NCBI GenBank assembly: GCA_016715885.1
Contig: JADJXL010000022.1
Location: forward strand, 267,588 to 325,804
Length of the DNA stretch: 58,217 nt
From: Polyangiaceae bacterium
Lineage (GTDB): Bacteria; Myxococcota_A; Polyangia; Polyangiales; Polyangiaceae
Reading direction: 5' to 3'
Part shown: positions 11,731 through 36,162 of the stretch, piece by piece
How positions within the stretch are numbered: the first letter of the stretch is position 1
How the letters are laid out: each line of letters starts with the position of its first letter
Notes under the pieces: model-generated
Databases searched by the model: none
The model's input: the letters and a program-made list of their open reading frames with translations, nothing else
What the model was told of the DNA's origin: nothing
Position numbers and translations under genes: made by a program

Positions 11731-11743
11731 AGGGGGTTGTCAA

Positions 11744-18948: not shown

Positions 18949-19027
18949 CGCATCGAGCGCTCCGGACATCGGGGCGCACGAATACGTGCCTTGAGCGGTC
19001 TCGCCGAGCAGTCCGTCCGGCCGCCGC

Positions 19028-19738
19028 ATGCGCACGCGGATTGCATTTCGCGTGGCCATGCGTCGCTACGTCATTGCGCTCGTGCTCGGTGTGCCGCTCG
19101 CCGCGGGATGCGGGGCGACCCGCTACTATTACGAGCCTGCCGAGCAGGCCACGGCTACCGTCATGGGGGCTCCGGCCGCGCGCTACGCCATTCCACCCGA
19201 TACGCAACTCGGGGATGTCCGTATCGCATCGCTCGGCATCGATGACGTTCTGCTCGACGAAGACACCGACCCTGCGCCGGCATTGCACACACGACTCATC
19301 GTTGCCAACGAGCGCGGCGAGCGCGAGTGGAATGTCGATACGCGTAACATCCGCATTCAATTCTCGTCCCGCATGCCGCCGGTAGCCCCCGCATTCGTCA
19401 ATACCAATGGGACCGGTATGCCCGTGGTCACCATACCGCGAGGCGAATCACGCACGATCGACACGTACCATCTCTTGCCCGGCAACCTGGAAGATGCCGA
19501 GGATCTGCCGCAATTCGACATCGTTTGGGAAGTTCAAACCGACGCGGAAACCATTGCCGAACGGACTCCATTCGACCGCCGCGAAGCCGAGCCACCGCCG
19601 AGCACCATGACGATGTACGGCGCTTGGGGAATGGGGCCCTATCCATACGGCCCGTGGTACGATCCTTGGCTGGCCCGTCCCATCATCATCCAGCGCATCA
19701 CGCCGGCACCGCGGGTGTATTATTATCCTCGCAGATGA
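19028..19738 (+). CDS. Hypothetical lipoprotein
   Basis: The signal peptide carries the lipobox LAAGC. A Pro/Tyr-rich C-terminus follows. Confidence 0.45.
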   Translation: MRTRIAFRVAMRRYVIALVLGVPLAAGCGATRYYYEPAEQATATVMGAPAARYAIPPDTQLGDVRIASLGIDDVLLDEDTDPAPALHTRLIVANERGEREWNVDTRNIRIQFSSRMPPVAPAFVNTNGTGMPVVTIPRGESRTIDTYHLLPGNLEDAEDLPQFDIVWEVQTDAETIAERTPFDRREAEPPPSTMTMYGAWGMGPYPYGPWYDPWLARPIIIQRITPAPRVYYYPRR

Positions 19739-19753
19739 GCGCGCATCGCGGTG

Positions 19754-20620
19754 TCACCGATGCCCCACCGCGAGAAAATGGGTCATCGCCAGGAAAAACC
19801 GCCCGTTGGCGCCTCGCGTTTTCTGATCGGACAACCACGCATTGGCGGCTTCCAACGTCAGCAAGCCCATGGCCTCCGCCAATTGAGCCCATAGTTCTGG
19901 AAAAAATCCGTATTCGTCGTAGCTCGTGCACACGTGCGTGTCCGCAACGACGTGCACATTCGAAAAACCAGCGTCCTTGAGCAATCGATGATATTGGCGC
20001 CCGACTGCACCATTTGCAATGCCCCCCGCCGTGGCGCGCGCAATGCTGCGCGTCGTGGCGAGATCGTTGCTATCGAGCAGCACGCTGTCCCAATCCTGGT
20101 CCACGAGCACGATGCGCCCTCCCGGCGCAAGCACTCGGTGCGCTTCCTTCAATGCTGGTTCCGGCTGTCGTAAATGTTGATAAAGCCGCTCCGCACGGTA
20201 TCCGTGTAGGCTGCCATCGGCATAGGGTAACGATTCCGCATCACCCACCTGCATCGTGGCATGGATTCCCCTGCGGGCAGCGCGCGCGCGTGCCACGTTG
20301 ATCAAACTTTCGTTGATATCCACCCCAAAAACAGAACCACCCGGCGAAACCAGCTCCGCAAGCTCGAATATGGCGGTTCCCGCACCACAACCAATGTCCG
20401 CGACGCTCGATCCTCGTTCGGCGCGCAGGAGCTCGTACGAACGTCGCCTGCGTGCAATGACGTCCGGCTTTCGTTCCATGCGGTCGAGGAATGCCAAAAG
20501 CGGATTCGATGCCGCCTCTTCGGCGACGAGCTGGTTCTCATGATGGGAGTCTTGCATGTACGTCCTCTTTTCCCTATCGCTGGCCTGCCGCCATGAGCCC
20601 CGAACCAAATTCGGCGTCAA
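19754..20620 (-). CDS. Class I SAM-dependent methyltransferase
   Basis: Motif I is VADIGCGAGTAIFEL and the post-I motif is GGSVFGVDINE. The Methyltransf_11-like layout is present. Confidence 0.7.
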   Translation of the reverse strand: MTPNLVRGSWRQASDREKRTYMQDSHHENQLVAEEAASNPLLAFLDRMERKPDVIARRRRSYELLRAERGSSVADIGCGAGTAIFELAELVSPGGSVFGVDINESLINVARARAARRGIHATMQVGDAESLPYADGSLHGYRAERLYQHLRQPEPALKEAHRVLAPGGRIVLVDQDWDSVLLDSNDLATTRSIARATAGGIANGAVGRQYHRLLKDAGFSNVHVVADTHVCTSYDEYGFFPELWAQLAEAMGLLTLEAANAWLSDQKTRGANGRFFLAMTHFLAVGHR

Positions 20621-20814
20621 TCGACGGGCACGATTCGGGCTTCGAGCCGCGACGCATCCGCTCGACGTTGGCCCGACGAAGGCCGCGCTGCCAGGTTTGC
20701 CAATACCGCAGGCACACGTTTCGACCGTGACGCAACAAAATTATGCGACCGGCACGCAAGCTCACCCAATTGTCGCAAAATGCAATGATTTCAAACGAGT
20801 AGGCGACTTCGCGG

Positions 20815-23800
20815 GTGGTGCTTTGGCTCGCAAAATGTCAATGTACTGCAGCTCCAGAACAAAGGGTGCTATTTGAACCGGTTACCATGCCCGCTCAATC
20901 TCGCGTCGACGGAATTTCCCCCGGAGCCTTGACCCTCGAACAGTTCCTGCGCGGCGCGCTCGCCGCTGCCGAAGCTCTCGCGAAGCTGCATCAAAGCGGC
21001 ATCATCCACCAGAGCATCCGCTCCGACACGCTGCGGATCGATTTCGAGCATGTGACGGTCGAGCTGAGCGGCGTGCAGACCGTCGCGCAAGCCGAGCCCT
21101 CGGCACTCAAACTACCTCTCGAATCACTGCCCTACATCGCGCCCGAACAGACGGGACGGTTCGACTCCCCCATCGATCACCGCGTGGACCTCTATTCGCT
21201 CGGCATCGTGCTGTACGAGCGCTGGGCCGCGGCGCTTCCGTTTCACGCCGACGATGCCGTCGGGTGGGTGCACTGCCATGTCGCGCGCGCGCCACGTGCG
21301 CTCATCGAAGCTGCGTCGCAAACGCCCGTGGTCGTCTCCAGCATCGTCATGAAGCTCCTCGCGAAGTCGCCGGACGAACGCTACCAGAGCGCCCGAGGCC
21401 TCGCGCTCGACCTGGAACGCTGCTTGTCCGAGCTTTTGACGACGGCGCACATCGAGCCGTTCCCGCTCGGCACGCGCGACGTCTGGGACAAACTCCGCAG
21501 CGCCGGGCAGATGTACGGCCGCAAGGAAGAGCTCGCGGCGCTTCGCGCGGCTGTCGGTCGAGCGTCGACCACGCGCGAGGTCGTGCTCGTGACGGGGCCG
21601 TCGGGAATTGGAAAAACGGCGCTTCTGCGTGAGCTTCAAAAGAGCAGCGACGAGAAGGCGTTTTTCCTCTGGGGTAAGTTCGAGCATCAAAGGCGGGACA
21701 TTCCGTACACGACGATCGGCCAGGCTTTCGGAGATCTCGTGCGTCAGCTCCTCGCGCTGCCCGACAAGGAGCTCGATGCGATACGCCAGCGACTCGTTGC
21801 AGCGCTCGGCGTGAACGCGCAGCTCGTCGTGGATCTGGTTCCGCAGATCGAATTGGTGATCGGCAAGCAGCCTCCGGCGGTGGTTCTCCCGGCTGCGGAC
21901 ACGCAGAGCCGGTTCAACATGACGTTCGCAAATTTCGTCGATGTGCTCGCGACGTCCGAGCGACCGATCGTGCTTCTGCTGGACGATCTTCAGTGGGCGG
22001 ATTTTGGCAGCTTGGATCTTCTTCAGCACGTTCTCACGCAACCCGCGCTGCGCAATTTGCTCATGGTCGGCGTGTATCGCGAAGAAGACGTGGGGCCGTC
22101 GCATCCGCTCGACAGCATGCTCGGTGCGGTGCGAGGTGCTGGGGTGACGGTGACGCCGATTGTCGTCGGGCCGCTTTCGCAAGCGCAAGTCGTCGATCTC
22201 GTGCGGGATCTTTTCGGCTGCGAGCCTTCCGAGGCCAAACCTTTGGCGTCGCTGCTTTGGGCCAAAACCGGGGGCAACCCGTTTTTCATGGCGCAACTGC
22301 TGGGCGTCTTGCACGAGGAAAAACTCATTCGGTTCGACGCGCAGCGGTGGGGCTGGCGGTGGGACATTGCGGACATCGAGTCGAAGGAGATCACCGACGA
22401 TCTCGTGGAGCTCGTGCTGGGCAAGCTGCGGCGTTTGCCCGAAGGAACGCTCGAGACGCTCGAAATCGCAGCGAGCACGGGCAATGAATTTTCGGTCGAT
22501 TTGGTGGCGACTTTGTGCGGCAAGACGAGCGAGGAGGTTCGTTCGTTGCTCGAGCCTGCGCTGGCGGACGGGATTCTCTTGCAGCGGCCGAGCGGCTACA
22601 AGTTCCTCCACGACAGACTCGTTCATGCCGCGTACGGGTTGATTGGGGAAGACGAGCGCACGGCGCTGCATTTGCGGCTGGGATGGCTGCTTTTCGAGCG
22701 CACGCCCCAGGACGAGCTCGACGGCGCGATTTTCGACATCGTCAACCAGCTCAACCTGGGTGCAGCGCGAGTCGAGTCGCCGCATCAGCGACGCCGCATC
22801 GCCGAGCTCGATCTGCGCGCAGGCCGCAAGGCCAAGGCGGCTGCGGCGGCAAGAACGGCGGCCATGTACCTTGGCAAGGGTATTGGTCTTTTGCCCGAGG
22901 ATGCGTGGTCGACCGAGTATGCGCTCGCGTATGCGCTGCACATCGAGCTTGCGGAGTGCGAGTTCATGACGGGGCGCTTCGAGGATGCGGAGCGGCTCTG
23001 CGCGACGGTGCTCGAACATGCGCGCACGCCGGTCGACAAGGCGGGTGCGTATCGGATTCAGCTCCTGCTTGCGACGGCGCAGATGAACAATGCGCACGCG
23101 ATCGAGCTCGGGCGGACGGCGCTGCGTTTGTTCGGGATCGAGCTACCTGCCGATCCGACCGAGCAGGACGTTCGCTCCGAGGTGGCGGCGGTACGGGACA
23201 AACTCCAGGGCACGACGATCGAGTCTCTTGGTCGACTGTCCGCGATGACGGATCCGGATACGATTGCGGCGATGGACATCCTTGCCGCGCTCTATCCGGC
23301 TGCGGTGTATGTCGTTCCCAACCTCTCGCAAGTCGCTGTCGCGCACATGGTGCGTCTGAGTATTTTGCATGGCAATGCGCCCGCATCGGCGCACGGTTAT
23401 GCGATCCTCGGCTTGGTTCTTTGTTCGCGGTTCAGTGAATTCCGCGATGGCTACCTCTTTGGCAAGCTTGCATGCGACCTGAGCCAAGAGCCTCGTTTTG
23501 AAAGTTATGCGAGTGAGGCCCTCGTCAATTTCGGCGCACTCACGTTGATTTGGTCACGACCCATGCGCGAGTCGCTGGAAATTTTGGCGATGGGTTTCCG
23601 TAGCGGGAAAAACGCAGGAAAAACCATTTATGCCGGCTCGAATTTGCTCCAGACGGCGATGGTGTCTTTGGCCTTGGGTGAGCCGCTCGATGCCGTCCAG
23701 GATGCGGGCGCTTTTGCGTACGAGTTTTTGACGAATGCGCGATTCGGGTTCTTGGCCGATAATGCGCGCACGCTGCAGCATTGCGCGCGGTCGCTTCGTG

Positions 23801-25827
23801 GTGAGACGGAACGATTCGGGTCGCTCACCGGCGATGGACTCGACGAGGTTGCATTCGAGAAACACCTGCAAGCCCAGGGAATTCCGGTCATCCATTACTT
23901 GTATGCAATCTACAAGCTGGTGGCGCGTTATCATGCAGGCGAACATGCAGATGCGCTCGCCGCAGCCGATCTAGCAGAAGGCTTGATTTGGAGCCGGCTC
24001 TATAGCGTGGCGGATGCCGAGTTTTACTTCTATGCCGCTTTGGCGGTCGCCGCCGCCTATCAAGATGCCACGGAGGAAGCGCGAGCGGGTTTCCGAAAGC
24101 GACTTACGAATTACGAGGATCAACTCCGGCAATGGAGCGAGAGTTGTCCGGACAATTTTCGATCACGGCATCATTTGGTTTCGGCAGAAATCGCGCGTAT
24201 CGATGGCCGGGATCACGACGCCATCGTGCTCTACGACAAGGCGATTCGATTCGCGCGTGAATCGGGATTCGTTCACGTCGAGGGGCTCGCGTGCGAGCTG
24301 GCCGGGGTTTTCTACAACCAGCGCGGCTATGCGCTCTTGCCCGCCGCCAATCTTCGACAAGCACGCAAATGTTACGATCGGTGGGGCGCGAAAGCGAAGG
24401 TCCGGCAGCTCGATACGCTGTATCCGGACCTCGTGGAAGCGCCGCGGCGGGAAAGCTCGCCGATGCCGAGCGCGGATGCCGAGCCCATCGATTCGCTGAC
24501 GGCTGCCAAGGCATCGGCCGCGATTTCGAGTGAAATGTCGCCCGACGAGCTTTTGGCAACGCTCATGCGAATTCTCACCGAACACGCGGGCGCGCAGCGA
24601 GCTTGTTTGCTTTTGCCAACGGCCGAAGGGCTCAGTTTTGCCGCGGAAATCACGGCCGATCATGATGGCGTGCGCGTCGATACCTCACGAAATAGAAATG
24701 CTCCTTCAGCGAACGAGTTTCCCATCTCCGTTGCGCAATACGTGCGGCGAACGCGCGAAAAACTCGTGCTCGACGATGTCGCATCCAACGTGACGTTTGC
24801 AAGCGATCCTTACGTGGCTGCACGTCGTCCCAAGTCGCTTCTATGCGCTCCCATCGTCCGGCGCGGCGAAGTCGCCGGCATCTTGTACTTGGAAAACCGT
24901 TTGGCCCGCGGAGCGTTCACGCCGAAACGACTCTCCTTGCTCGAATTCCTTTCGGCCATTTCACTGGAAAATGCGCTGCTCGCGGCCGATTTGGTTCGCG
25001 AGACGGCGACGCGAACCCGAGCCGAAAAGACCCTCAAAGAAAGCGAAGAGCGCCTCCAAAGGCTCGTGGAAACGGCCAACGTCGTCCCGTGGGAAGCCGA
25101 TCGCATCACGGGCCGGTTCACGTACGTCGGCCCGCAGGTCGTCAAAATGCTCGGCTATCCGCAAGATGCCTGGTATTCGGACCATTTCTTGGGCACGCAC
25201 GTCCATCCGGAGGACCGCGAAAGCACGCTCCTGCACCTCGTCGCTGCGTCTGGCGAAGACGATTTCGATTTTCGCATTCGAGCCGCAGACGGGCGCACGG
25301 TGTGGCTCCACAACGTGGTGAGCGTACGCGGGGGCGATGGAAGCGATACCGTCGGAGGTTTTCTCTTTGACGTCACCGAGCGCAAGGAATCCGAAAGCAC
25401 CCTCAAGGACAAGCTGCGCATCATCGAAGAGCAGCAGACGGCCATTCAAAAATTGTCGACGCCCATCATCGAAGTATGGGAGGGCGTTTTGACGGTCCCG
25501 GTGCTTGGAATCGTCGACGAGCAGCGGGCCGAGCAAATGATGATGACGCTGCTCGATGCGGTGACGCGCACGGGTTGCCAATATACAATCATCGATTTGA
25601 CGGGCGTCGATGCGGTCGATACCGGCACGGCCGATCACCTCATGCGCATCGTCCGCGCCGTGCAACTCCTTGGCGCGCAGAGCATCGTGGTCGGTATTCG
25701 GCCGGAGGTGGCGCAAACGATCGTGTCGATGGGCGTGGACCTATCGTCGATCAGCACGCTGGCGACATTGCGGCAAGCATTGCTGATGTGCATGGGAGGG
25801 CCGCGAGGCGCGCGCAAGCGTGGTTGA
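20815..25827 (+). CDS. Giant multidomain signalling protein: N-lobe-less degenerate protein-kinase C-lobe, AAA_16/STAND P-loop NTPase, long helical (TPR-like) region, GAF, PAS and a C-terminal STAS domain
   Basis: Only the kinase C-lobe is present. HRD is replaced (IHQSIRSDT) and DFG is replaced (ELSG). The Walker A is VTGPSGIGKTALL and the Walker B is VLLLDDLQWAD. A GAF region reads CAPIVRRGEVAGILYLEN. A PAS region reads VWLHNVVSVRGGDG...FLFDVTERK. The STAS domain reads STPIIEVWEGVLTVPVLGIVD...IIDLTGVDAVDT. The track start is GTG 20815; an ATG at 20887 is an alternative. Confidence 0.8.
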   Translation: MVLWLAKCQCTAAPEQRVLFEPVTMPAQSRVDGISPGALTLEQFLRGALAAAEALAKLHQSGIIHQSIRSDTLRIDFEHVTVELSGVQTVAQAEPSALKLPLESLPYIAPEQTGRFDSPIDHRVDLYSLGIVLYERWAAALPFHADDAVGWVHCHVARAPRALIEAASQTPVVVSSIVMKLLAKSPDERYQSARGLALDLERCLSELLTTAHIEPFPLGTRDVWDKLRSAGQMYGRKEELAALRAAVGRASTTREVVLVTGPSGIGKTALLRELQKSSDEKAFFLWGKFEHQRRDIPYTTIGQAFGDLVRQLLALPDKELDAIRQRLVAALGVNAQLVVDLVPQIELVIGKQPPAVVLPAADTQSRFNMTFANFVDVLATSERPIVLLLDDLQWADFGSLDLLQHVLTQPALRNLLMVGVYREEDVGPSHPLDSMLGAVRGAGVTVTPIVVGPLSQAQVVDLVRDLFGCEPSEAKPLASLLWAKTGGNPFFMAQLLGVLHEEKLIRFDAQRWGWRWDIADIESKEITDDLVELVLGKLRRLPEGTLETLEIAASTGNEFSVDLVATLCGKTSEEVRSLLEPALADGILLQRPSGYKFLHDRLVHAAYGLIGEDERTALHLRLGWLLFERTPQDELDGAIFDIVNQLNLGAARVESPHQRRRIAELDLRAGRKAKAAAAARTAAMYLGKGIGLLPEDAWSTEYALAYALHIELAECEFMTGRFEDAERLCATVLEHARTPVDKAGAYRIQLLLATAQMNNAHAIELGRTALRLFGIELPADPTEQDVRSEVAAVRDKLQGTTIESLGRLSAMTDPDTIAAMDILAALYPAAVYVVPNLSQVAVAHMVRLSILHGNAPASAHGYAILGLVLCSRFSEFRDGYLFGKLACDLSQEPRFESYASEALVNFGALTLIWSRPMRESLEILAMGFRSGKNAGKTIYAGSNLLQTAMVSLALGEPLDAVQDAGAFAYEFLTNARFGFLADNARTLQHCARSLRGETERFGSLTGDGLDEVAFEKHLQAQGIPVIHYLYAIYKLVARYHAGEHADALAAADLAEGLIWSRLYSVADAEFYFYAALAVAAAYQDATEEARAGFRKRLTNYEDQLRQWSESCPDNFRSRHHLVSAEIARIDGRDHDAIVLYDKAIRFARESGFVHVEGLACELAGVFYNQRGYALLPAANLRQARKCYDRWGAKAKVRQLDTLYPDLVEAPRRESSPMPSADAEPIDSLTAAKASAAISSEMSPDELLATLMRILTEHAGAQRACLLLPTAEGLSFAAEITADHDGVRVDTSRNRNAPSANEFPISVAQYVRRTREKLVLDDVASNVTFASDPYVAARRPKSLLCAPIVRRGEVAGILYLENRLARGAFTPKRLSLLEFLSAISLENALLAADLVRETATRTRAEKTLKESEERLQRLVETANVVPWEADRITGRFTYVGPQVVKMLGYPQDAWYSDHFLGTHVHPEDRESTLLHLVAASGEDDFDFRIRAADGRTVWLHNVVSVRGGDGSDTVGGFLFDVTERKESESTLKDKLRIIEEQQTAIQKLSTPIIEVWEGVLTVPVLGIVDEQRAEQMMMTLLDAVTRTGCQYTIIDLTGVDAVDTGTADHLMRIVRAVQLLGAQSIVVGIRPEVAQTIVSMGVDLSSISTLATLRQALLMCMGGPRGARKRG

Positions 25828-25848: not shown

Positions 25849-26607
25849 TCAGGTAATGCGAAAACCACCGTCGAGCTGCAAGTTGGCTCCCGTTATGAAC
25901 GCCGCTCGATCCGAACAGAGGAAGAGCACGGCATCAGCAAGCTCGGCCGGGCGGCCCATGCGTTTCATGGGCAGCCTCGCGAAGAGCGCGCCGAGCGCTT
26001 CTTGTGGCAATTGCTGCGCATATTCGGCTGCCATAGCGGTTTCGAATGCCCCGGCGACGATCGCATTGACGCGGATGTTTTTCGCGGCACTCTCCACGGC
26101 AGCCGTACGCGTGAGCGCCTCGAGCCCGGCTTTCGCCGCCGAATACGCGCCAAGGCCGGGCTGCACCGATTGGGATGCGAGCGAGGAGCAATTGACGATG
26201 GCACCTCCTCCACTTGCTGCGATGGCTGGGATTTCGTATTTCATGCAGAAAAATATCGCACGCAGAAATGCAAGATCCCGGTCGAAAGATTCTGCGGTCA
26301 TCTCGACGAGGGATGACGCTCGGAGCGCTCCCCAAGCGTTGTTGTAGGCGTAATCCAAGCGGCCATGGATGGACAAGGTCCGCTCTACGAGCGCCTTGAC
26401 ATCGTCTTCGGATGTCACATCGGCGCGGATGAACGTGGCATCGCCGCCCGTAGCGCGAATGGAACCCTCGACTTCGCGCCCGAGCTCTTCACGGCGTGCC
26501 GTGAAGACGACCTTGGCGCCTTCACGGGCAAACGCTTCGGCCGCGGCCCTTCCCAGCCCCGCGTTTCCACCGGTTATCAGCGCAATCTTTCCCTCGAATT
26601 CACCCAC
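25849..26607 (-). CDS. Short-chain dehydrogenase/reductase (FabG-like 3-oxoacyl reductase family)
   Basis: The cofactor-binding motif is ITGGNAGLGRA and the catalytic motif is YSAAKAG (YxxxK). It lies 120 bp downstream of the NRPS-PKS gene on the same strand. Confidence 0.8.
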   Translation of the reverse strand: MGEFEGKIALITGGNAGLGRAAAEAFAREGAKVVFTARREELGREVEGSIRATGGDATFIRADVTSEDDVKALVERTLSIHGRLDYAYNNAWGALRASSLVEMTAESFDRDLAFLRAIFFCMKYEIPAIAASGGGAIVNCSSLASQSVQPGLGAYSAAKAGLEALTRTAAVESAAKNIRVNAIVAGAFETAMAAEYAQQLPQEALGALFARLPMKRMGRPAELADAVLFLCSDRAAFITGANLQLDGGFRIT

Positions 26608-26727: not shown

Positions 26728-29700
26728 TTACGTTCGAGCAGATTCGCCCACGGGTAGCGAGCAGTGCATGTGAATCACGCGCCAGGCTCCTTCGTGTTTT
26801 TCCAGAACCAGGCTCAGGCGAGTATCGTGGTAAATGGCTTGTCGCTCGTCTTGTGCAGACGTTTGTTCAGAATCGAACCGTGCGGTAATGGTGGCAGCAC
26901 GACCACCGGCGAATACGAGAACTTTTGCATCGCGCACGCATGCGCGCAGGTCCACGAGCGATGCCATCTTGCGCTCATAATGTGCCCTGATGCTCATTGA
27001 GCCTTCGAGAATGTCATCGGAGACGCCAATGCTCACGCACGGATGATTCGGGGCAAACATGGCCCCCAATGCAGCCCCATCGCGCATACACATCCACTCG
27101 ACGAATCGATCCAGAAAAGCGCGTAGCTCCGCTTCGTCTTGGTCGAATGTTTGAATTGCTCTGCGGCTGGGGAATGGAGTTGGGATTCGAATACGTCGAG
27201 GCATCTCCGAGGGCGCTTGCAGTTGGACGTGCGAGGACGCATTGGGTTGCGTTGCAGGTTCGTGCGATACCGGGGTCATGGGCGTGGATGTCATTGCAGC
27301 CGGCGAGTCCATGAGGGTCTTGATGCCGTGGACGGTGGGATTCGCCATGAATTGAGCCATCTTGATTTTGCGTCCAGTTCGCAGGTTGAATTCAGCGAGG
27401 AAGTGAACGGCGAGGAGCGAGTCGCCTCCCAGCTCGAAGAAGTTTGCGCCTGGGGGCACTTGCGAAATGCCCAGCATACGCTTCCAAAGATGCTGTGCAA
27501 TCGACGGCGCACTGTCCGCAGCGGTCGTCGACATGGGTATGCGTGACGCCACGGGAGCTTCATCCATCGTGGAAATGGACACTTCGCCATTCGATGCCGA
27601 TGTCAGCGCAGCGAGGTCGTGCCACACGTTTGTTTTGAGCTCCGACGATCGCGTCGGATGCTCGGCGATGATGAGCGCACTGTCTTCGACACGCTGACGA
27701 GCGGGGTCTTTCGGAACGGTTTCGACATTCGCAAACCCGGCGCGCTTCAATTCGCGCTGCCAATCGGAGAGGGTCATCGTCAGCGCACCGCGGGCGCGAA
27801 CGACGTCCCAATAACCTGGCGCCAAACCCCAAACGAGATGGCCCCACGTACCGACGCGCGTCGTTTCGACGCAAACGAGCGCGCCGCCGGGAATGAGCAA
27901 TTCACGCAATTTCACGAGGCTCGAAGGGAGGTCGAGCGCCACGTGCACGGAATCGAGTCCGAGGATGATGTCATAACCTTCGTGGAACCCTTGTTCACTC
28001 GGGGCCCGATTCAGGTCGAAGCGAAGGAATTTCATCCAAGGAATGCGGCGTTTCTTTGCCTCGCGTTCTGCGACGTGAAGGAACGAACGTCCGATGTCGG
28101 TGAAATGGTATTCCACATTTTCACCACGAAGCCGCTCCACCAGGGGCCATGTGAGCCGACCATGTCCCGCGCCGACTTCGAGAATGCGGACTTTCTTGTC
28201 CCGGTGCCGCTTCATGATGTCGACCACGACGTCGCGTGCCAACGCCATGTAGACATGGTAATAAAACGCGGCATTTTCGCGCATGCACTCCTCGTAGAAT
28301 GCATCCGTGCCGTCGGGGTACAAAACGCCGATCGGCTCGATTTCGCCCGTCAGCGCTTCGTCGTAATGCGCGACGCAGTGTTCGAGGAAAAGGGATAGTC
28401 CCAAAAACTTGGGTTCGTCTCGTCGAAACGATACGGCGAGCCCGGCGGATCGCCCCACGCCCTCGCTACGGATCGAAATTGCGTCGGAACCTTGGCGAGT
28501 TGCCATGCCGGCACGTTCGAGCACGCGCACGAGGGAATTGAACATGGGGGTATATTTGGGCAGAATGCCCGTGTCTTTTTGCAGCGCCTCCATGGAACGC
28601 GGTCGTTCGAGGGTATCGCCCAATCGTCGTGCAAAAAAATCGAGCACGAGATGGGCGCAGAGGTTCTCCATTCGAGCCAACAACCCCGGAGCTTCGTCGA
28701 TGGATGTGGCTCCGAGCTCGCGGGTAATTTCGACGGCGCGCACGTCGAGCGGCGCGGGCTCCAAGGGCGGCGCGGCCGCTTGTTCATTGGGTTTGGGCAC
28801 TTTGGGCGGCGCAGCTTCGAGGTTGTAACGCCGCCTTTCGAATGGATACGTGGGCAATGGAATGCGCCGGCGCTTCTCGTGCGCGTAAAACGCTTGCCAA
28901 TCGACGTCCAGCCCGAGCTCCCACAATCGCCCCAATCCGCGAAACAGAGCGGCACACGAAGACTCGGCACGCTTGCGAGCGCTCGGCAATGTGCCCACGA
29001 TTTCGCACGTTTCTCCGTCGAACCGCGGATGCGCCTTGAGCAGCGAGCCGAGCGCGCTGCCCGGACCAACCTCGATGCAAATGGGCGATTCGAGGTCGAA
29101 TAGCGTATCGAAAGCATCGGTCAAGCGCACGGGATTGCAAAGATGATCCGCCCAAGCATCCGCATGGGTCGCCTGGTCGACATTCATGTATTTCCCCGTG
29201 ACGTTTGAAATGATGGGAATGCCGGGTGCGTTCCGCTCGGTGCGGGCCACGTGTGCACGAAAATCGGCGCGGATTCCGTGCATCATGGGTGAATGCGATG
29301 CACGTGAAACACGCACATCGCTGGTTTCGATGCCAGCATTCGTGAGACGAACGCGCACCTTGTCAATGAGCTCGGTGGCTCCGGATAGGACGACGCAATC
29401 GGGAGCATAGGTGGCAATGGCGATGCCGTCACCAAGGAATTGTGTAATCGTTCGCACGTCGGTAAATGCGGTGAGCATGCTGCCGGCGGGGGTGGAGTCC
29501 ATCAATTGGCCACGAGCGACGACGAGGCTGAGCGCGTCACGAAGCGAAAAGACGCCGGCAATGCAGGCTGCGACGTATTCGCCTAGGCTATGGCCGAGCA
29601 TGGCCGCGGGCTTTATGCCCCACGCCATGAGCTGCTTGGCCAACGCGTATTCGATGGCGAACAAGAATGGCTGCGCCCAGCCCATTTCGTCGAGTAGACG

Positions 29701-32700
29701 TTCGTTTTCGGCGCCGCCCGCTAACAATGGCCGGAGATCGAGCCGCGCGTCTTCCCGGACGATGTCGAAACAGCGATCGATCTCGATTCGGAATACCGGC
29801 TCGGCATCGTACAAGTCGCGACCCATTTGGAGATATTGCGCCCCATGGCCGGGAAACAAGAATACCACGGGGCGCGTCGTCGTGGGGACTGCCGGAGCAC
29901 TTGGGCTTGGCGGGACCGAAATCAAGGCGCCAATAGCCCCCATGACGTTGCGACAAACGACCGTCGTTCGATGACGCATGGGCGCTCGGCCCACGGCAAG
30001 TGTATACGCGACGTCCGCCAATTGGGCCGAAGCGTGCGTTCCGAGATAGCCGCGAAGCTTTTGCGAAACGGCTGATAACGTTTCGGGTGTACGTGCCGAG
30101 AGGCATAAGAGTTGGTAGGGCCGGCTTTCGGTAGATGCTTCCAAGGCAGGCGGCTCTTCCAAAACGACGTGTACGTTTGTCCCGCCAATCCCGAGAGCAC
30201 TCACGCCAGCTCGTCGTGGACCGTTTGCGCGCGGCCATGGCCGGGCACGATCGCTCATGAAGAAGGGCGAGGTTTCCAGATTGAGCAATGGATTGGGATT
30301 GCGGTAACCTGGGACCGGTGGAATGGTTGCATGCTCGAGCGCAAGGGCTGCTTTGATGAGGCCGGCAGCTCCAGCGGCAGCGTCCATGTGACCGAGGTTT
30401 GCTTTGAGGGCGCCGAGCGCACAATAACCGCGCCGATCCGTCGATTTGCGATAAGCGCGCGTCAATGCGCGGACTTCGGTCGGATCTCCGAGGCGCGTGC
30501 CGGTACCGTGCGTTTCGACGAATTCGATGGTAGCAGGATCCACGCGCGCCGTTTCACAGGCTTTGGCGACGACTGCGGCCACGCCGTCCTCGCTTGGCGC
30601 CGTGAAGCCAATTTTGTCCGATCCATCGTTGTTCATGGCCGAACCGAGGATGACGGCATGAATGGTGTCACGATCGGCAATGGCGTCCGCAAGTCGTTTC
30701 AGCACGACGATGGCAATGCCGCTCGATTTGACCATTCCGCTCGCATCGGCATCGAAGGGCCGGCAATGGCCATCCGCGGACTCGATACCTCCTTCGACGT
30801 GGAGATGTCCAAAGTCTCGCGGGCTCAATGCGGACAACGACACGCCGCCTGCAATGGCCATGTTGCAATCGCCCGCCAGCAGGCTTTGGCGAGCCATGTG
30901 AATGGCGGAGAGCGATGTGGAGCAAGCCGTTTGGACGACGACCGCGGGACCTTTCAGACCCAGTTTGAACGCCACCCGCGTCGCCAAAAAGTCCGTGGCA
31001 TTCAGCGTTTGCGCACGGTATCGCTCTTGGTCGCTCGATGCAGCGCCGAGCGCCTTCATGACGGGCCCCAGCCAATATCGAGGAATGGCTGCGCCGGCAA
31101 AGACGCCTATTTGGCTCGGATAACGGCCAGGGTCGACGCCCGCATGTTCGAGTGATTCATAGGCACATTCCAGGAAAAGCCGCTGCTGCGGGTCGAGCCA
31201 CGTGGCGTCGGCGTCATTGAAACCGAAAAAGGCTGCATCGAAATGATCCGCATCCTCCAAGACGCCTTCCGCGGGAATGAAATTCGCTTGGCGCACGCGT
31301 GCCGGATCGGCGCCTGCGGCAATGAGGTCCTCGGGATCCATTCTTTGGATCGTTTCGCGCCCTGTACGGACGACCTCCCACAAGTCGTCGGGTCCACGTA
31401 CGCCGGGAGCTCGAATGGCCATACCGACGATGGCAATGGCATCTGCGCGCGCGGGTGCCGGTGCTTTCGCAGGGGCAGCGTCGGTGCTCGGCTTTGGCGT
31501 GGGCTGAAGCTTCAGATTGGGCAACGTCGACAGATGTGTCGCAAGCTTCCGGATCGTGGGCAATCGGAGCATAGTCATCATGTCGATGTCGACGCCGAGT
31601 TGCGTTTGCAATTTTGCCTGCACGCGCGCCATGGCCAAAGAATGGCCACCCAACTCGAAGAACGGCGAATCGATACCGACATCGGATTGCCCCAAAACTT
31701 CCTTCCAAATCGAGGTGACAGCATGTTCCAGCGAGTTTGCGGTCGGAGCAATCACAGGGGCGCGCTCCACCGGCATCGGCAACGATGCTCGATCGATTTT
31801 ACCGCTCGAATTGACGGGCATTCGATCCAACACGACAAACGTAGCCGGTACCATGTATTCCGGCAATCGTTCGCGAAGGTGTTTCTTGAGCGCATCCACG
31901 AGGTCGGAAGGTGCTGGTCGACGTGGTAAGACATATCCTACGAGGCGTGGATCACCTGCAAAGCTCACGACCTGGACGGCAGCCATTTCAATGGCAGGAT
32001 GAAGACCGAGCTCCACTTCGATCTCCCCGAGCTCGACACGATAGCCGCGGAGTTTGATCTGACGATCGGTGCGTCCGAGGTAATCGATTTGGCCATCACC
32101 GCGCCACTTTACGCGATCGCCCGTCTTGTAGAATCGCGTCTCGGCGGCGTTGGGAATGAGGTTTTCTAGGAAGCGATCCCTGGTGAGCTCGGGTCGATTC
32201 AAATATCCTCGCGCGACAACCGGACCACCAATGTAGAGCTCACCGGGTATGCCAATGGGCACGGGATGCATGTGATCATCCAAAATGTAGACGGGAATGT
32301 GATCGAAAGGTCGCCCAATGGAGGGTTTTCCCTCGCCGCGCCGGCAGTCTCCCAGGACGGATACCACCGTCGTTTCGGTTGGTCCATATGCATTGACGAA
32401 GCGTCGACCATGGGCCCACTTGTTCACGAGGGATTCAGGGAGCGCCTCGCCAGCGGTGATGATCGTATGCAGCCGAGGAAGCTCGTCGTGAGGCGTCACG
32501 GCGAGCGCCGATGGCGTCATCGCTACGACATCGATATGCTTTTCCTGAAGCGTTTTCGTGAGATTCGCACCGGGCGCTATCGCATTCGAATCCGTCACGA
32601 CGAGCGTGGCTCCCACGGGCCAGGTCATGGCGAGCTCCCATATCGAGACGTCGAAGGTGAGGGAGAAAAATTGCAGCACGCGTGTTCCTACGCCGAGGCC

Positions 32701-35670
32701 AAACATGGTCTCGAGACCACGGGCCAGGTAATAAAGTCCCCGCCTTTCGACCATGACGCCTTTGGGACGGCCCGTCGATCCGGACGTGTAAATGACGTAC
32801 GCAAGGTGCTCGTGCCCTGCATTGGAAACCGGCCGCGATTCCGCCTGCGCGGCGATCGCCGCAGCTTCGTCGTCGAGCACAATGGTGCGTCCGCCGTATT
32901 CCGGTAAAACGCCCGCATTCTTCCGATTCGTCAGCAAAATCGAAATGGACGCGTCTTCCAGCATGAAACGAAGCCGCTCGCTCGGGTAGCTCGGATCCAG
33001 CGGCACGAACGCTCCGCCCGCTTTGAGCACCCCCAATATCGCCACCATCGCATCGATCGACCGCTCGATGCACAGGCCCACCAATGTATCAGGCTGCACC
33101 CCGAGCGCGCGCAGGTAATGCGCAAGGCGATTGGCACGGACGTCGAGCTCAGCATACGTCAATCGCGTATCACCCTGTTCCACGGCAATCGCCAATGGTG
33201 ACCTATCGACCTGCGCCTCGAACAGCCCCTCGAGCGACACGAATTCTTCTTCGGGCTTCGCCTTGACCCGCGGCCCTTGCCACTCTGCAAGCTGCTGCTC
33301 TTCCGCGCGAGTCAAAATCGCCAAATCCTCGAGGCGCGCCGCCGGATCGCGCACGATGCTCTCCAAGAGAACGCCGAAATGGCCCACCATCCGTTCAATG
33401 GTTTCTTTGGCAAAAAGTTCCGTCTGGTATTCGATATGGCCTACCAATCCAGACGATCGCTGATGCAGCTCCAGATACAAGTCGACCTTGGCCACACCAA
33501 TGTCGATTCGACCAGCATTCCAATTCGGCGTGGCGGCGAGGGGCGCGATGGGCGGCATGAGAATGAAGGTATTGTTGTACAGGGGATTTTCATTTGGGTC
33601 ACGCCTGCCGCCCAGCTCGTTCACGAGCCTATCGAACGGGACGTCCTGATGTTCGCGCGCTGCTTTCAACACGTCGCCCACTTTGGGAAGCAAATCGATG
33701 AACGACATGGCTGCATCGAGCTGCGTGCGCAAAACGAGGTTGTTGTTGAAAAAGCCGATCAGCCCCTCGAATTCGGGACGCGGACGACCCGCCGCGGCGG
33801 ACCCCACGATGATGTCGCTTTGCCCCGAATAGCGGAAGAGCAGCGTTTTCCATGCCGCGAGGAGCGTCGTGAAAAGCGTGACGCCCGTGCGTTGCGCGAT
33901 CGCGCGGAGTTTGGTGACGAGCTCGGAAGAAACCGCCACGGCCGCGCGTGCGCCTCGCCCCGTCGGCGACTGCGGACGTGGGAAATCGGTGGGCAAAGGC
34001 AGATCGGAAAAACCCGCCATGTGCGACTTCCAATAAGCCAACTTCGGCGCGAGTGCCGCTTCGCTCAGCCACATTCGTTGCCACGCGGCAAAATCCGCAT
34101 AATGAAGCGATGGCTCGGGCAAGGGAGACGGTTTGCCCAGGGAAAACGCCGCATAAAGCGCCGAGAGCTCGGGGAGAAATACATTGAAAAAGGATACGCC
34201 ATCGACGACGATGTGGTGCGCCGTGATGACGAGGCGCGCTTCGGCGTCGCCAAATCGAATGAGCAGCGCACGCACGAGCGGACCTTGCTCGAGATGAAAT
34301 GGTCTCCGCGCATGCTCGACGGCAGCGCGTGCGGCTTCCGATTCCCGAATGTCCTCGGGCCACGTGCCGGCATCGACCGAATCCAAATGAAATGGCCGCG
34401 GCGGCAAGATTTTTTGCTTGGGTGCTCCGTCGATAACGGCAAATACCGTACGCCATGCTTCGTGACGGCGTACGATTTCCGTGAGCGCCCGCTCGAGCAC
34501 CGTGGCATCCACGGCGCCATCCATTCGAATGATGATGGGCTCGTTGTAAACGATCGTGCCCGGAAAAAGCCGATGGACGAACCACAAGCGCTCTTGCGCG
34601 AACGATACATCCAGCTTCTCATCGCGACGCGCAGGCATGACGGGCGGACCAGGTAGCACTTTCGTGCTCGCCTTCGTGACGGGGGCGATGACGCTTGGCG
34701 CCGCATTTTCTGCAACGGTTGGTCCTACAAATGGCGCCAGCGCAATGTGACGTGTTGGAACGGGGGGAATCGTTATCCTTCGTAGGCTTGGCGGCGGCTC
34801 CTGCCATTCACATTGCGCGATGAACTCGACGACCGTTTTACAGAGCACGCTCTCCGCGTCCACCAGACCCTCGATGGCGTCGAAATGGTTTCTGCCTCGT
34901 TGAATGAATAGGCGCCCGGGGAGCCCATTGCGTTGCCAAAGGGTGAGGTATTCGTTCGATTGTCGTTTGAATTCGGCAGACTCGTCGTCACCGACGCTGA
35001 CGAGCAGGGGCGGACCCATATCGGGCACGTGGAAAATGGGACTTTGATCGAGGACGACTTCGTGATTGAGCCCGAGGTTTTTTTGCATCGACGTGTGTCG
35101 AAGTGGACGCAAGTCAAAAATGCCGCTGATGGGAATCGCGCCCTTGATGATGTCTTGCGGCAAACCATAATCCTCGTGCCATCGCGTGGACAAAAGCATG
35201 GCGACCTGATGGCCGCCCGCTGAATGACCAACCACGAAGATGCGGTCCGGATCTCCGTGAAATGCGCGAATGTTTTCGTAAATCCATTTCATCGCCGAGC
35301 GGCTTTGACGCGTGATGTCGGCTATGGTGACCGCCGGGCAGAGCGAATGGTTCGTGAGGACGACCGTCAGGCCATTGGCCCGCAATCCGCGCGCCACGAA
35401 GCTGAATTCCTTGCTGCTGAAGGACTGCCAATAGCCGCCGTGAATGAATACCACCACCGGCGCATTGGGCTGAGGTGCCGGCGAAATGTCGACTGTTTCG
35501 TCAGCTCCGGCACCAAACCGTATATCGAGTGACCAAGGAAGGTCATGACGCGCCTTGACGCTTTCGTCTGCATACCAGCGAAGATATCGCTGTGCGTCAT
35601 GCACGAGGTGCGTCGGGTCGTATTCTTTATCAAGTGTAGTCGACGTTTCGAACTGGCGGGATCTGATCAT
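26728..35670 (-). CDS. Hybrid NRPS-PKS megasynthase (2980 aa): alpha/beta-hydrolase, C, A, PCP, KS, AT, MT, ACP and an NTF2/SnoaL-like C-terminal domain
   Basis: - Abhydrolase: N-terminal VVVFIHGGYW plus VVGHSAGGH nucleophile elbow.
- C domain: HHIVVDGVS.
- A domain: LAYVIYTSGSTGRPKGV, NAYGPTETTV, GELYIGG, YKTGDRVKW, GRTDRQIKLRGYRVELGEIE, NSSGKIDR.
- PCP: FFELGGHSLAM.
- KS: TACSTSL, VETHGTGTRLGDPTE, ANLGH.
- AT: GHSLGEY plus RASH.
- MT: ILEVGAGHGRLTWPL.
- ACP: FFELGGDSLLAV.
- Terminal domain: NTF2-like (about 170 aa).
- No KR, DH or TE domain. GGGAGG lies 6 nt before the ATG. Confidence 0.9.
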   Translation of the reverse strand: MIRSRQFETSTTLDKEYDPTHLVHDAQRYLRWYADESVKARHDLPWSLDIRFGAGADETVDISPAPQPNAPVVVFIHGGYWQSFSSKEFSFVARGLRANGLTVVLTNHSLCPAVTIADITRQSRSAMKWIYENIRAFHGDPDRIFVVGHSAGGHQVAMLLSTRWHEDYGLPQDIIKGAIPISGIFDLRPLRHTSMQKNLGLNHEVVLDQSPIFHVPDMGPPLLVSVGDDESAEFKRQSNEYLTLWQRNGLPGRLFIQRGRNHFDAIEGLVDAESVLCKTVVEFIAQCEWQEPPPSLRRITIPPVPTRHIALAPFVGPTVAENAAPSVIAPVTKASTKVLPGPPVMPARRDEKLDVSFAQERLWFVHRLFPGTIVYNEPIIIRMDGAVDATVLERALTEIVRRHEAWRTVFAVIDGAPKQKILPPRPFHLDSVDAGTWPEDIRESEAARAAVEHARRPFHLEQGPLVRALLIRFGDAEARLVITAHHIVVDGVSFFNVFLPELSALYAAFSLGKPSPLPEPSLHYADFAAWQRMWLSEAALAPKLAYWKSHMAGFSDLPLPTDFPRPQSPTGRGARAAVAVSSELVTKLRAIAQRTGVTLFTTLLAAWKTLLFRYSGQSDIIVGSAAAGRPRPEFEGLIGFFNNNLVLRTQLDAAMSFIDLLPKVGDVLKAAREHQDVPFDRLVNELGGRRDPNENPLYNNTFILMPPIAPLAATPNWNAGRIDIGVAKVDLYLELHQRSSGLVGHIEYQTELFAKETIERMVGHFGVLLESIVRDPAARLEDLAILTRAEEQQLAEWQGPRVKAKPEEEFVSLEGLFEAQVDRSPLAIAVEQGDTRLTYAELDVRANRLAHYLRALGVQPDTLVGLCIERSIDAMVAILGVLKAGGAFVPLDPSYPSERLRFMLEDASISILLTNRKNAGVLPEYGGRTIVLDDEAAAIAAQAESRPVSNAGHEHLAYVIYTSGSTGRPKGVMVERRGLYYLARGLETMFGLGVGTRVLQFFSLTFDVSIWELAMTWPVGATLVVTDSNAIAPGANLTKTLQEKHIDVVAMTPSALAVTPHDELPRLHTIITAGEALPESLVNKWAHGRRFVNAYGPTETTVVSVLGDCRRGEGKPSIGRPFDHIPVYILDDHMHPVPIGIPGELYIGGPVVARGYLNRPELTRDRFLENLIPNAAETRFYKTGDRVKWRGDGQIDYLGRTDRQIKLRGYRVELGEIEVELGLHPAIEMAAVQVVSFAGDPRLVGYVLPRRPAPSDLVDALKKHLRERLPEYMVPATFVVLDRMPVNSSGKIDRASLPMPVERAPVIAPTANSLEHAVTSIWKEVLGQSDVGIDSPFFELGGHSLAMARVQAKLQTQLGVDIDMMTMLRLPTIRKLATHLSTLPNLKLQPTPKPSTDAAPAKAPAPARADAIAIVGMAIRAPGVRGPDDLWEVVRTGRETIQRMDPEDLIAAGADPARVRQANFIPAEGVLEDADHFDAAFFGFNDADATWLDPQQRLFLECAYESLEHAGVDPGRYPSQIGVFAGAAIPRYWLGPVMKALGAASSDQERYRAQTLNATDFLATRVAFKLGLKGPAVVVQTACSTSLSAIHMARQSLLAGDCNMAIAGGVSLSALSPRDFGHLHVEGGIESADGHCRPFDADASGMVKSSGIAIVVLKRLADAIADRDTIHAVILGSAMNNDGSDKIGFTAPSEDGVAAVVAKACETARVDPATIEFVETHGTGTRLGDPTEVRALTRAYRKSTDRRGYCALGALKANLGHMDAAAGAAGLIKAALALEHATIPPVPGYRNPNPLLNLETSPFFMSDRARPWPRANGPRRAGVSALGIGGTNVHVVLEEPPALEASTESRPYQLLCLSARTPETLSAVSQKLRGYLGTHASAQLADVAYTLAVGRAPMRHRTTVVCRNVMGAIGALISVPPSPSAPAVPTTTRPVVFLFPGHGAQYLQMGRDLYDAEPVFRIEIDRCFDIVREDARLDLRPLLAGGAENERLLDEMGWAQPFLFAIEYALAKQLMAWGIKPAAMLGHSLGEYVAACIAGVFSLRDALSLVVARGQLMDSTPAGSMLTAFTDVRTITQFLGDGIAIATYAPDCVVLSGATELIDKVRVRLTNAGIETSDVRVSRASHSPMMHGIRADFRAHVARTERNAPGIPIISNVTGKYMNVDQATHADAWADHLCNPVRLTDAFDTLFDLESPICIEVGPGSALGSLLKAHPRFDGETCEIVGTLPSARKRAESSCAALFRGLGRLWELGLDVDWQAFYAHEKRRRIPLPTYPFERRRYNLEAAPPKVPKPNEQAAAPPLEPAPLDVRAVEITRELGATSIDEAPGLLARMENLCAHLVLDFFARRLGDTLERPRSMEALQKDTGILPKYTPMFNSLVRVLERAGMATRQGSDAISIRSEGVGRSAGLAVSFRRDEPKFLGLSLFLEHCVAHYDEALTGEIEPIGVLYPDGTDAFYEECMRENAAFYYHVYMALARDVVVDIMKRHRDKKVRILEVGAGHGRLTWPLVERLRGENVEYHFTDIGRSFLHVAEREAKKRRIPWMKFLRFDLNRAPSEQGFHEGYDIILGLDSVHVALDLPSSLVKLRELLIPGGALVCVETTRVGTWGHLVWGLAPGYWDVVRARGALTMTLSDWQRELKRAGFANVETVPKDPARQRVEDSALIIAEHPTRSSELKTNVWHDLAALTSASNGEVSISTMDEAPVASRIPMSTTAADSAPSIAQHLWKRMLGISQVPPGANFFELGGDSLLAVHFLAEFNLRTGRKIKMAQFMANPTVHGIKTLMDSPAAMTSTPMTPVSHEPATQPNASSHVQLQAPSEMPRRIRIPTPFPSRRAIQTFDQDEAELRAFLDRFVEWMCMRDGAALGAMFAPNHPCVSIGVSDDILEGSMSIRAHYERKMASLVDLRACVRDAKVLVFAGGRAATITARFDSEQTSAQDERQAIYHDTRLSLVLEKHEGAWRVIHMHCSLPVGESART

Positions 35671-36126: not shown

Positions 36127-36162
36127 CAAAGCCTCGCTTGATACGATTTGGGAGAGTCGTGT

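Follow-up and report, generated by a model that had tools for sequence, protein, structure and literature searches.

A half-kinase STAND protein with an RsbR/YtvA-type STAS domain, co-inherited with a nonribosomal peptide-polyketide cluster in Polyangiaceae

One gene in a 58,217-nucleotide stretch of DNA from Polyangiaceae bacterium (contig JADJXL010000022.1; the whole stretch is referred to as the window) encodes a 1646-aa protein of unusual composition. Its domain order in Pfam is the C-terminal lobe (C-lobe) of a kinase without the N-terminal lobe (N-lobe), an AAA_16 STAND NTPase, a TPR-like region, a GAF domain, a PAS domain and a STAS domain, and we regard this architecture as near certain. 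Within Polyangiaceae, the gene forms a single heritable unit with a neighboring cluster that encodes a nonribosomal peptide synthetase (NRPS) joined to a polyketide synthase (PKS), together with SnoaL and a short-chain dehydrogenase (SDR). The overall picture that we favor, with modest confidence, is that of a cluster-linked STAND sensor whose output would be STAS-mediated protein binding.

Half-kinase, STAND core and STAS domain

A preliminary description of this gene had given its product 1670 residues. The corresponding open reading frame (ORF) is real, but its first codons are probably not translated. Ortholog N-termini begin at the position equivalent to the ATG at 20887, and the product read from this ATG is 100% identical, over its full length, to the NCBI entry 'MAG: AAA family ATPase [Polyangiaceae bacterium]' (MAG, metagenome-assembled genome; P0001, 1646 aa). 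For these two reasons ATG 20887 is taken as the likely start, which shortens the product to 1646 residues (Table 1). The domain string proposed earlier is correct, each domain being confirmed by Pfam, with STAS at the C-terminus. Neither Pfam nor NCBIfam detects HisKA or HATPase_c in the protein at E ≤ 0.1, and an overlooked histidine kinase output was rejected on this ground; the HisKA/HATPase output usual in the Pkinase-AAA_16-GAF-PAS family has been replaced by STAS. The same scans find no helix-turn-helix family in the protein. The AAA_16 domain and TPR-like arm, with both Walker motifs, conform to the definition of a STAND NTPase, and the weak TPR and TPR_CHK1 matches of Pfam lie in the stretch from residue 680 to 1130. 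All of the 17 STAS-bearing orthologs that we compared have an intact Walker A, and 15 of them have the DD pair of Walker B; judged from its sequence, the NTPase is apparently competent. An NCRFLQ-type flavin motif is absent from the protein sequence, and the PAS domain is not of the LOV type.

It is evident that the N-terminal domain is only half a kinase. When aligned with solved structures of M. tuberculosis PknB, it pairs with PknB residues 108-275, in agreement with the profile positions covered in Pfam. IIHQSIRSDT (residues 39-48) is paired with IIHRDVKPAN of PknB and VELSGV with VMDFGI, so that HRD has become HQS and DFG has become LSG (ELSG, residues 59-62), and the degeneracy of both motifs noted in the preliminary description is borne out. 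The C-lobe retains the APE motif (PYIAPE) and the alpha-F aspartate. A confident AlphaFold2 model, computed for residues 1-218 from 25 homologs, has a predicted local distance difference test score (pLDDT) of 85 and a predicted template modeling score (pTM) of 0.83, and its best Foldseek matches are PknB kinase domains (probability 1.00). These matches extend over approximately 170 of the approximately 270 target columns, with template modeling scores of 0.65-0.68 on the query and approximately 0.54 on the target, as expected of a C-lobe alone. Thus, the kinase fold is recognizable in the C-lobe only, with no P-loop, no VAIK lysine and neither the HRD nor the DFG aspartate, and the model agrees with the pseudokinase scaffold that had been suggested. 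Alignment and model both predict that the domain is unable to bind ATP or to phosphorylate.

The preliminary description had also argued that a 195-bp gap upstream leaves no room for an N-lobe. This argument fails, because the gap was measured between maximal ORFs, and the likely starts give an intergenic region of 329 bp (20558-20886) which could in principle hold approximately 100 codons. The N-lobe is judged absent because nothing upstream is homologous to one, not for lack of room. When residues 1-175 of each of five full-length paralogs were searched with tblastn against window positions 19001-21200, no N-lobe remnant was found upstream; the paralogs align only from residue ~95 on, inside the ORF from about nucleotide 20929, and their residues 1-94 are unmatched. 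Stop codons are also present upstream in the gene's own frame. A frameshift or upstream remnant that would restore the N-lobe was therefore rejected, and the conclusion that the whole lobe is missing stands. The half-kinase is best read as a docking surface, by analogy with the KIND domains of animals, in which a lone kinase C-lobe is kept as a non-catalytic protein-interaction module (PMC2064798). No KIND family is among the Pfam matches at E ≤ 0.1, and the likeness to KIND is architectural only.

At the other end of the protein, the best PDB matches of the last 154 residues are stressosome RsbR proteins (Listeria 9o5l, 6qcm and 7b0u and Vibrio 7o0i; E = 5e-27 to 1e-25, with an RsbR match of approximately 97 bits). 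YtvA is matched at E = 2e-18 and RsbS at E = 3e-13 to 1e-10. The SpoIIAA/RsbV models of NCBIfam stay well below their cut-offs (TIGR00377, 22.3 bits vs. 53.45; TIGR02886, 20 bits vs. 114.75), and the part of the NCBIfam model YtvA_fam that matches is J-alpha plus STAS. The C-terminal 480 residues were also modeled, with only moderate confidence (pLDDT 65.6) and for use in domain-level matches only; this model shows GAF, PAS and STAS, with one long helix before PAS and another after it, and the linker helix is predicted at model residues 331-357. Its best Foldseek match is full-length YtvA (E = 3.5e-12, all 261 residues), followed by RsbR from the Listeria and Vibrio stressosomes. In sequence and in predicted fold, the STAS domain is thus of the RsbR/YtvA type, that of a stressosome co-antagonist, and not of the SpoIIAA type, and the C-terminal ~260 residues appear to form a YtvA-like PAS-helix-STAS module. 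Of the earlier label "RsbR/SpoIIAA-like", the RsbR part holds (E ~5e-27) and the SpoIIAA part has to be dropped. The domain also has the RsbR setting, behind a linker helix and an N-terminal sensor, and a domain of this type would be expected to have RsbS and RsbT as partners rather than RsbW.

We then compared the phospho-sites, numbered on an alignment with Listeria RsbR. The position of Listeria T175 (T171 in B. subtilis) is a Glu in the window protein (GIVDEQRA) and E, G, A, T, S, N or R among the 17 orthologs. The position of T209 (T205 in B. subtilis) is a Thr (AVDTG), with T in 11 orthologs, S in three, and A, G and I also present. The position of T241 is a Thr as well (AQTIV) and is kept in 16 of the 17. 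The classical phospho-switch would accordingly seem not to be a conserved feature of this STAS domain; with a Glu at the first phospho-site and both sites variable, partner switching driven by phosphorylation is not assured.

Conservation of the clade and its link to an NRPS-PKS cluster

The relatives of the window protein were taken as the best 120 database clusters (P0001-P0120). In P0001-P0067, Walker A lies at residues 222-261, the catalytic loop reads HQNIRP and DFG is missing; HQS in place of HQN is found in the window protein and its closest relatives. Most relatives with HisKA/HATPase have Walker A at approximately 325-340, HKDIKPAN and LTGFGIA, and in a few of them Walker A is nearer 230-250. 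As far as these motifs tell, the missing N-lobe is a trait of a whole myxobacterial clade, with members in Polyangium, Chondromyces, Sorangium, Nannocystis and soil MAGs, and not a local truncation. Four layouts can be distinguished in this clade by their C-termini: one ends after GAF (~1396 aa), one ends after PAS (~1508 aa), one is GAF-PAS-STAS (~1650 aa) and one is GAF-STAS without PAS (P0062). STAS is present in 43 of the 120 best clusters, and the GAF-PAS-STAS layout occurs in more than 20 genomes of four genera. Database names of the members are generic or conflicting ('AAA family ATPase', 'RsbR, positive regulator of sigma-B', 'Histidine kinase').

Conservation was measured as mean identity to the window protein across the 17 orthologs. 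STAS is the most conserved domain (77%, with 34% invariant columns), followed by the linker helix (73%), PAS (66%), GAF (65%), the kinase C-lobe (62%, comparable to GAF and PAS) and AAA_16 (58%), and the TPR-like arm is the least conserved part (50-58%). The half-kinase thus appears to be under purifying selection. The loss of the N-lobe, the degenerate catalytic motifs and the absence of HisKA/HATPase could be taken to mean that the gene is a decaying remnant, i.e., a 5′-truncated and inactivated copy of a Pkinase-AAA_16-GAF-PAS histidine kinase. However, the frame is intact over 1646 codons, the layout and length recur in the 43 clusters mentioned above, the Walker motifs are kept in nearly all orthologs, and half-kinase and STAS are both strongly conserved, which argues that the gene is not such a remnant. 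The conservation data effectively refute decay, to which we assign hardly any probability.

Its descent places the protein among the histidine kinases of Pkinase-AAA_16-GAF-PAS layout, known as "dual protein kinases", HstK being an example. HisKA-bearing proteins share ~40% identity with it over ~91% of its length, and the core of AAA_16, TPR, GAF and PAS is homologous. The dual protein kinase family (HstK or cyanobacterial STK family III) has been described previously (PMC2176072, PMC1262709). Among the full-length HisKA paralogs, P0068-P0120, HKDIKPAN is kept and almost all have LTGFGIA at the DFG position, so that the metal-binding aspartate is missing; these paralogs may also be pseudokinases or atypical kinases.

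The window gene is followed by an SDR gene and by a megasynthase gene with the order hydrolase, C, A, PCP, KS, AT, C-methyltransferase, ACP and SnoaL. We scanned orthologs in one genome per species, which gave 18 full-coverage loci. Using tblastn, an NRPS-PKS homolog was found beside every Polyangiaceae ortholog with a readable flank, including eight Polyangium loci (among them both copies in Polyangium sp. y55x31), two Chondromyces loci and three Sorangium loci. SDR homologs adjoin the orthologs in L004, L010, L011, L014, L015 and L018. The arrangement differs from one locus to another. In Polyangium aurulentum the homologous synthase is convergent to the ortholog and accompanied by SDR; in Chondromyces crocatus it is convergent with PKS and NRPS as separate genes; in Sorangium So ce363 NRPS and PKS lie upstream on the same strand; and beside a MAG ortholog at 47% identity the NRPS follows downstream on the gene's own strand, at a distance of 123 bp. 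Conservation does not extend to the opposite flank, and the methyltransferase upstream of the window gene has no counterpart in any locus.

Clade members without STAS lie inside clusters of this kind too. In S. cellulosum So ceGT47 the genes run NRPS, PKS, SnoaL and clade member, and in a metagenome contig they run NRPS, SnoaL, clade member and PKS, with a similar arrangement in L025. The So ceGT47 locus (L087) has two members of the N-lobe-less clade 7.5 kb apart (10001-14191 and 21736-24191); the STAS-less copy comes just after NRPS, PKS and SnoaL, and the other is STAS-bearing, with 1687 aa.

Neighbor-joining trees of the STAND core and of KS-AT are largely congruent. The two distance matrices give a Mantel r of 0.88, reached by none of 5000 permutations, and this value is inflated by the common species phylogeny, from which part of the congruence is expected. 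For each of the two copies in Polyangium sp. y55x31, the STAND tree and the KS-AT tree give the same lineage. This pairing of paralogs, together with the changes of orientation and the gene fusions and fissions, suggests that sensor and synthase have been kept together as a unit. This coupling, which the preliminary description did not mention, is the best clue to function. A functional link of the protein to the adjacent cluster is therefore likely, and the protein is probably a dedicated sensor or regulator of that cluster. No match to the cluster product was found in a survey of conserved myxobacterial clusters.

Table 1. Coordinates of the STAND-STAS gene, its domains and motifs, and the adjoining genes in the window
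Feature	Position	Strand	Residues	Basis or remark
Maximal ORF	20815..25827	+		GTG start, 1670 aa
Coding sequence with stop codon, likely start	20887..25827	+	1-1646	Exact database match and ortholog N-termini
Predicted non-catalytic kinase C-lobe-only domain, KIND-like pseudokinase	20923..21444	+	13-186	Pfam, PknB alignment, AlphaFold2, Foldseek
Pkinase match			26-167	Pfam profile positions 106-253 of 263; 38.3 bits vs. cut-off 31.7
HRD remnant H41-Q42-S43	21007..21015	+	41-43	Orthologs: HQN
DFG remnant L60-S61-G62	21064..21072	+	60-62	
AAA_16 STAND NTPase	21511..22068	+	209-394	Pfam E = 8e-36
Walker A GPSGIGKT	21595..21618	+	237-244	
Walker B LLLDDLQWAD	21973..22002	+	363-372	
Helical, winged-helix, TPR-like arm of STAND module	22069..24426	+	395-1180	Weak TPR_19 and TPR_CHK1 matches
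GAF	24541..24954	+	1219-1356	Pfam E = 6e-15; Foldseek: PDE and Lcd1 GAF domains
PAS (PAS_3/PAS)	25048..25362	+	1388-1492	Pfam, NCBIfam
J-alpha-like linker helix, PAS to STAS	25363..25464	+	1493-1526	YtvA_fam profile positions 113-243
RsbR-type STAS	25465..25746	+	1527-1620	Pfam E = 1.7e-12
Divergent intergenic region shared with upstream methyltransferase gene	20558..20886	.		No kinase N-lobe coding potential (tblastn, stops)
SDR	25849..26607	-		Convergent, 21 bp downstream; part of co-inherited cluster
NRPS-PKS megasynthase	26728..35670	-		2980 aa; homologous synthases adjoin orthologs

Partner genes, proposed mechanism and alternatives

We then sought partner-switching genes. None of 56 other ORFs of the window scanned with Pfam has a match to STAS, HATPase_c_2 or SpoIIE, and phmmer searches of all stop-to-stop ORFs of at least 50 aa in the window with myxobacterial RsbS-, RsbT-, RsbU- and PAS-STAS-like queries returned only the target. 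A hidden second STAS, RsbW/RsbT or PP2C gene in the window was thus rejected by Pfam (57 ORFs, the target included) and by phmmer, in accordance with the earlier remark that no RsbW-type kinase or PP2C phosphatase is visible there.

RsbS- and RsbT-like genes do exist in related Myxococcota. In a 'Polyangiaceae bacterium' MAG (L001), a 209-aa RsbR-like protein is encoded near a 134-aa RsbS-like protein (1050-1454; best PDB match B. subtilis RsbS, E = 2e-18), a 132-aa RsbT-like kinase whose homologs are named RsbT by JGI and NCBI (2505-2903) and, directly after the kinase, a SpoIIE phosphatase. This RsbR/RsbS/RsbT/SpoIIE module recurs in Labilithrix-type loci, and the best 120 RsbT homologs are Labilithrix-type and uncultured. 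A further pair in L001 (5687-6530, minus strand), a STAS_2 protein of 132 aa and a HATPase_c_2 protein of 144 aa, was rejected as RsbS and RsbT, since it has no PDB matches and NCBIfam points to the slr1659/slr1658 type, with a weak superfamily match below the cut-off. This slr1659/slr1658-like pair shares the locus with a CheA-like Hpt-HATPase and with the genes resembling RsbS, RsbT and RsbU.

Sorangium, Nannocystis and Polyangium are rich in orphan STAS proteins of the RsbR type (L027-L047, L052, L063, L067, L069, L076 and L080), which measure 300-630 aa, differ in their N-termini and have no RsbS/RsbT-like gene within 10 kb. In contrast, Labilithrix-type genomes carry arrays of ~215-aa RsbR-like proteins with RsbS, RsbT and RsbU. 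In Chondromyces and Sorangium, a separate PAS-STAS protein of ~400 aa is encoded a few kilobases from the ortholog (L005 1579-2799; L006 16677-17864; L016 16176-17030; L017 11757-13070; L015 29-589). These proteins have an RsbR-type STAS domain and are 34-38% identical to the C-terminus of the target, and the neighboring PAS-STAS protein is a candidate STAS partner. No such gene is found in the window or in the Polyangium loci.

In the mechanism that we propose, the cytoplasmic STAND-STAS protein would read a signal through its GAF, PAS or TPR parts. The signal would flip the nucleotide-dependent STAND switch, probably with oligomerization, and the switch would move STAS and the dimeric linker helix to new positions. 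The output would be altered protein binding by STAS, as opposed to phosphotransfer or DNA binding, and could take the form of partner switching: STAS would enter assemblies with further STAS proteins of the RsbR/RsbS type and retain or set free a partner, which could be an RsbT-like kinase. The kinase C-lobe could serve as a docking surface in the manner of KIND domains. The pathway would be tied to the neighboring cluster, either controlling its expression or reporting on its product.

Several results weigh against this mechanism, and a partner of the stressosome type is uncertain. RsbS, RsbT, RsbW and PP2C are absent from the window and from the flanks of every ortholog (10 kb for rsbS/rsbT), and none of the four is found within 10 kb of approximately 45 RsbR-type STAS loci in Polyangium, Sorangium, Chondromyces and Nannocystis. 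The canonical phospho-acceptors of RsbR (T171/T175 and T205/T209) vary among the orthologs. The link to the cluster is not universal, since six Nannocystis orthologs (39% identity) have no NRPS-PKS within reach and the GAF-STAS paralog P0062 is not beside a synthase. The share of the tree congruence that is due to species phylogeny has to be discounted as well.

The STAS domain could instead act as a SpoIIAA/RsbV-type antagonist, sequestering and being phosphorylated by an orphan RsbW-type kinase encoded elsewhere, with a PP2C phosphatase resetting the switch. The STAS fold is present, the window protein has a Thr at the position of RsbR T205, which we take to be equivalent to the phospho-sites S58 of SpoIIAA and S59 of RsbS, and many HATPase_c_2 and SpoIIE genes occur in related myxobacterial loci. 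We nevertheless consider this reading unlikely. The sequence is far nearer to RsbR and YtvA than to the two SpoIIAA/RsbV models, the phospho-site is A, G, I or S in some orthologs, and no RsbW or PP2C gene is near any ortholog. Moreover, the domain is the end of a 1646-aa protein and not a single domain of ~110 aa, and no HATPase_c_2 gene is found in the window or beside the orthologs. It is similarly improbable that the protein is an ordinary stressosome sensor with an oversized arm that serves the general stress response, the NRPS-PKS adjacency being meaningless inherited synteny. This would suit the RsbR-type STAS with its linker helix, the RsbS- and RsbT-like genes of related Myxococcota and the Nannocystis orthologs without the cluster. 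However, the genes stay adjacent at protein identities as low as 47%, despite inversions and the fusion or splitting of genes, whereas conservation is lacking on the other side, the duplicate within one genome has its own synthase copy of the matching lineage, and STAS-less paralogs are embedded in the same kind of cluster; nor is RsbS/RsbT found within 10 kb of any Polyangium, Sorangium, Chondromyces or Nannocystis member.

A slightly more doubtful reading is that STAS serves only for self-assembly or scaffolding, without any kinase partner or phosphorylation, and multimerizes the STAND protein or joins it to orphan RsbR-type STAS proteins, the output then coming from binding by the C-lobe or the NOD. 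The canonical phospho-sites are indeed not conserved, the many orphan RsbR-type STAS proteins of Sorangium, Nannocystis and Polyangium do not stand beside RsbS/RsbT, PAS-STAS genes lie near the orthologs in Chondromyces and Sorangium, and the STAS-less paralogs apparently function without the domain. On the other hand, STAS and the linker helix are the most conserved parts of the protein, which would fit a specific conserved partner better than generic assembly, and the Thr at the T241 position is kept in all but one ortholog.

A more novel reading, which we consider unlikely, is that of a cognate pair of receptor and synthase, the receptor being the STAND-STAS protein and the synthase the adjacent minimal NRPS-PKS(+SnoaL), with a logic like that of LuxI/LuxR or AfsA/ArpA. 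The cluster would make a small signal derived from an acyl-amino acid, which the GAF, PAS or TPR parts would bind and which a STAS assembly resembling a stressosome would relay, in place of a DNA-binding domain. Each paralogous pair would then be a private channel of its own, as with the two pairs of one Polyangium genome and the STAS-less forms. If true, this would be a new type of chemical signaling circuit in myxobacteria.

Other features of the window and comparison with known systems

Several other genes of the window deserve mention. Upstream of the target are two methyltransferase genes, of the DUF938 type (18340-18744, plus strand) and UbiE/COQ5-like (19754-20620, minus strand). The DUF938 ORF spans profile positions 3-140 of 202 and may be truncated; the nearer gene is divergent from the target across the 329-bp region and has no counterpart beside any ortholog. 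The window opens with two tandem hybrid histidine kinases (3-5048, plus strand; GAF, HisKA, HATPase_c and two or three receiver domains), the first of which runs off the window start. Between the start of the NRPS-PKS gene and a gene for a 516-aa protein with collagen triple-helix repeats (39773-41323, minus strand; Pfam Collagen, E = 1.5e-26) lie ORFs without a family match (35667-39779). A Ser/Thr kinase gene at ~48600-50222 (plus strand) looks disrupted: an N-lobe (GVGGMGEV...VAKK) is readable in frame upstream and is followed by an in-frame stop, with no catalytic loop, and the ORF from 49002 starts at the APE motif and covers Pkinase profile positions 159-255 only. It could be a pseudogene, the product of an internal deletion, or an assembly error.

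In the literature searched, we found no study of or experimental data on this architecture or any of its members, and nothing relevant on stressosomes in myxobacteria. Odd domain fusions are common in myxobacteria. The natural-product clusters of these bacteria are a major source of drug leads, yet little is understood of how they are regulated, and many stay silent when the bacteria are cultured; a conserved sensor that is linked to a cluster and has neither DNA binding nor phosphotransfer as its output would offer a new way to switch them on. It would also extend STAS signaling of the stressosome type to a lineage and a role, secondary metabolism, for which it is not described in the literature searched. 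A clade in which purifying selection keeps only the C-lobe of a Hanks-type kinase would be a bacterial counterpart of the animal KIND domain and would suggest that one kinase lobe can persist by itself as a module for protein interaction.

The protein departs from the definitions of RsbR, SpoIIAA, the dual kinases and the LAL regulators, and has something in common with several known systems. With KIND it shares a stand-alone C-lobe retained as a non-catalytic domain, but the half-kinase is independent in origin, being derived from a bacterial PknB-like kinase, and is fused to a STAND NTPase. The dual kinases (HstK, cyanobacterial STK family III and the fungal CHK1 type) have the homologous core of AAA_16, TPR-like, GAF and PAS parts, and the weak TPR_CHK1 match of the window protein recalls the fungal type. 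However, the dual kinases have a complete Ser/Thr kinase domain with HKDIKPAN, Walker A mostly at ~325-340 (237 in the window protein) and a C-terminal HisKA and HATPase_c, whereas the half-kinase clade has no N-lobe, HQN or HQS, no DFG, and either STAS or nothing after GAF/PAS.

STAND regulators of the LAL/MalT type, such as PikD and AfsR-like proteins, are situated in polyketide clusters. The window protein resembles them in its AAA_16 NTPase and TPR-like arm and in being encoded beside, and co-inherited with, PKS/NRPS genes. It differs in having no LuxR or SARP DNA-binding domain, and with no helix-turn-helix in Pfam its output would have to be protein-protein.

RsbR (RsbRA-RD in B. subtilis, and RsbR of Listeria and Vibrio vulnificus) and YtvA share with it a C-terminal STAS domain, a long linker helix and a sensory domain. 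In YtvA, as here, PAS sits directly before the linker helix, and YtvA likewise has an acidic residue in place of the first phospho-threonine. The differences are the ~1380 extra N-terminal residues of the window protein (C-lobe, STAND, TPR and GAF), compared with an RsbR sensor of ~140; the absence of rsbS/rsbT beside the window gene or any ortholog and the variable phospho-sites, in comparison with RsbR; and the lack of a flavin-binding motif, in comparison with YtvA. By analogy, the protein would work most like an RsbR/YtvA-type co-antagonist fused to a STAND switch.

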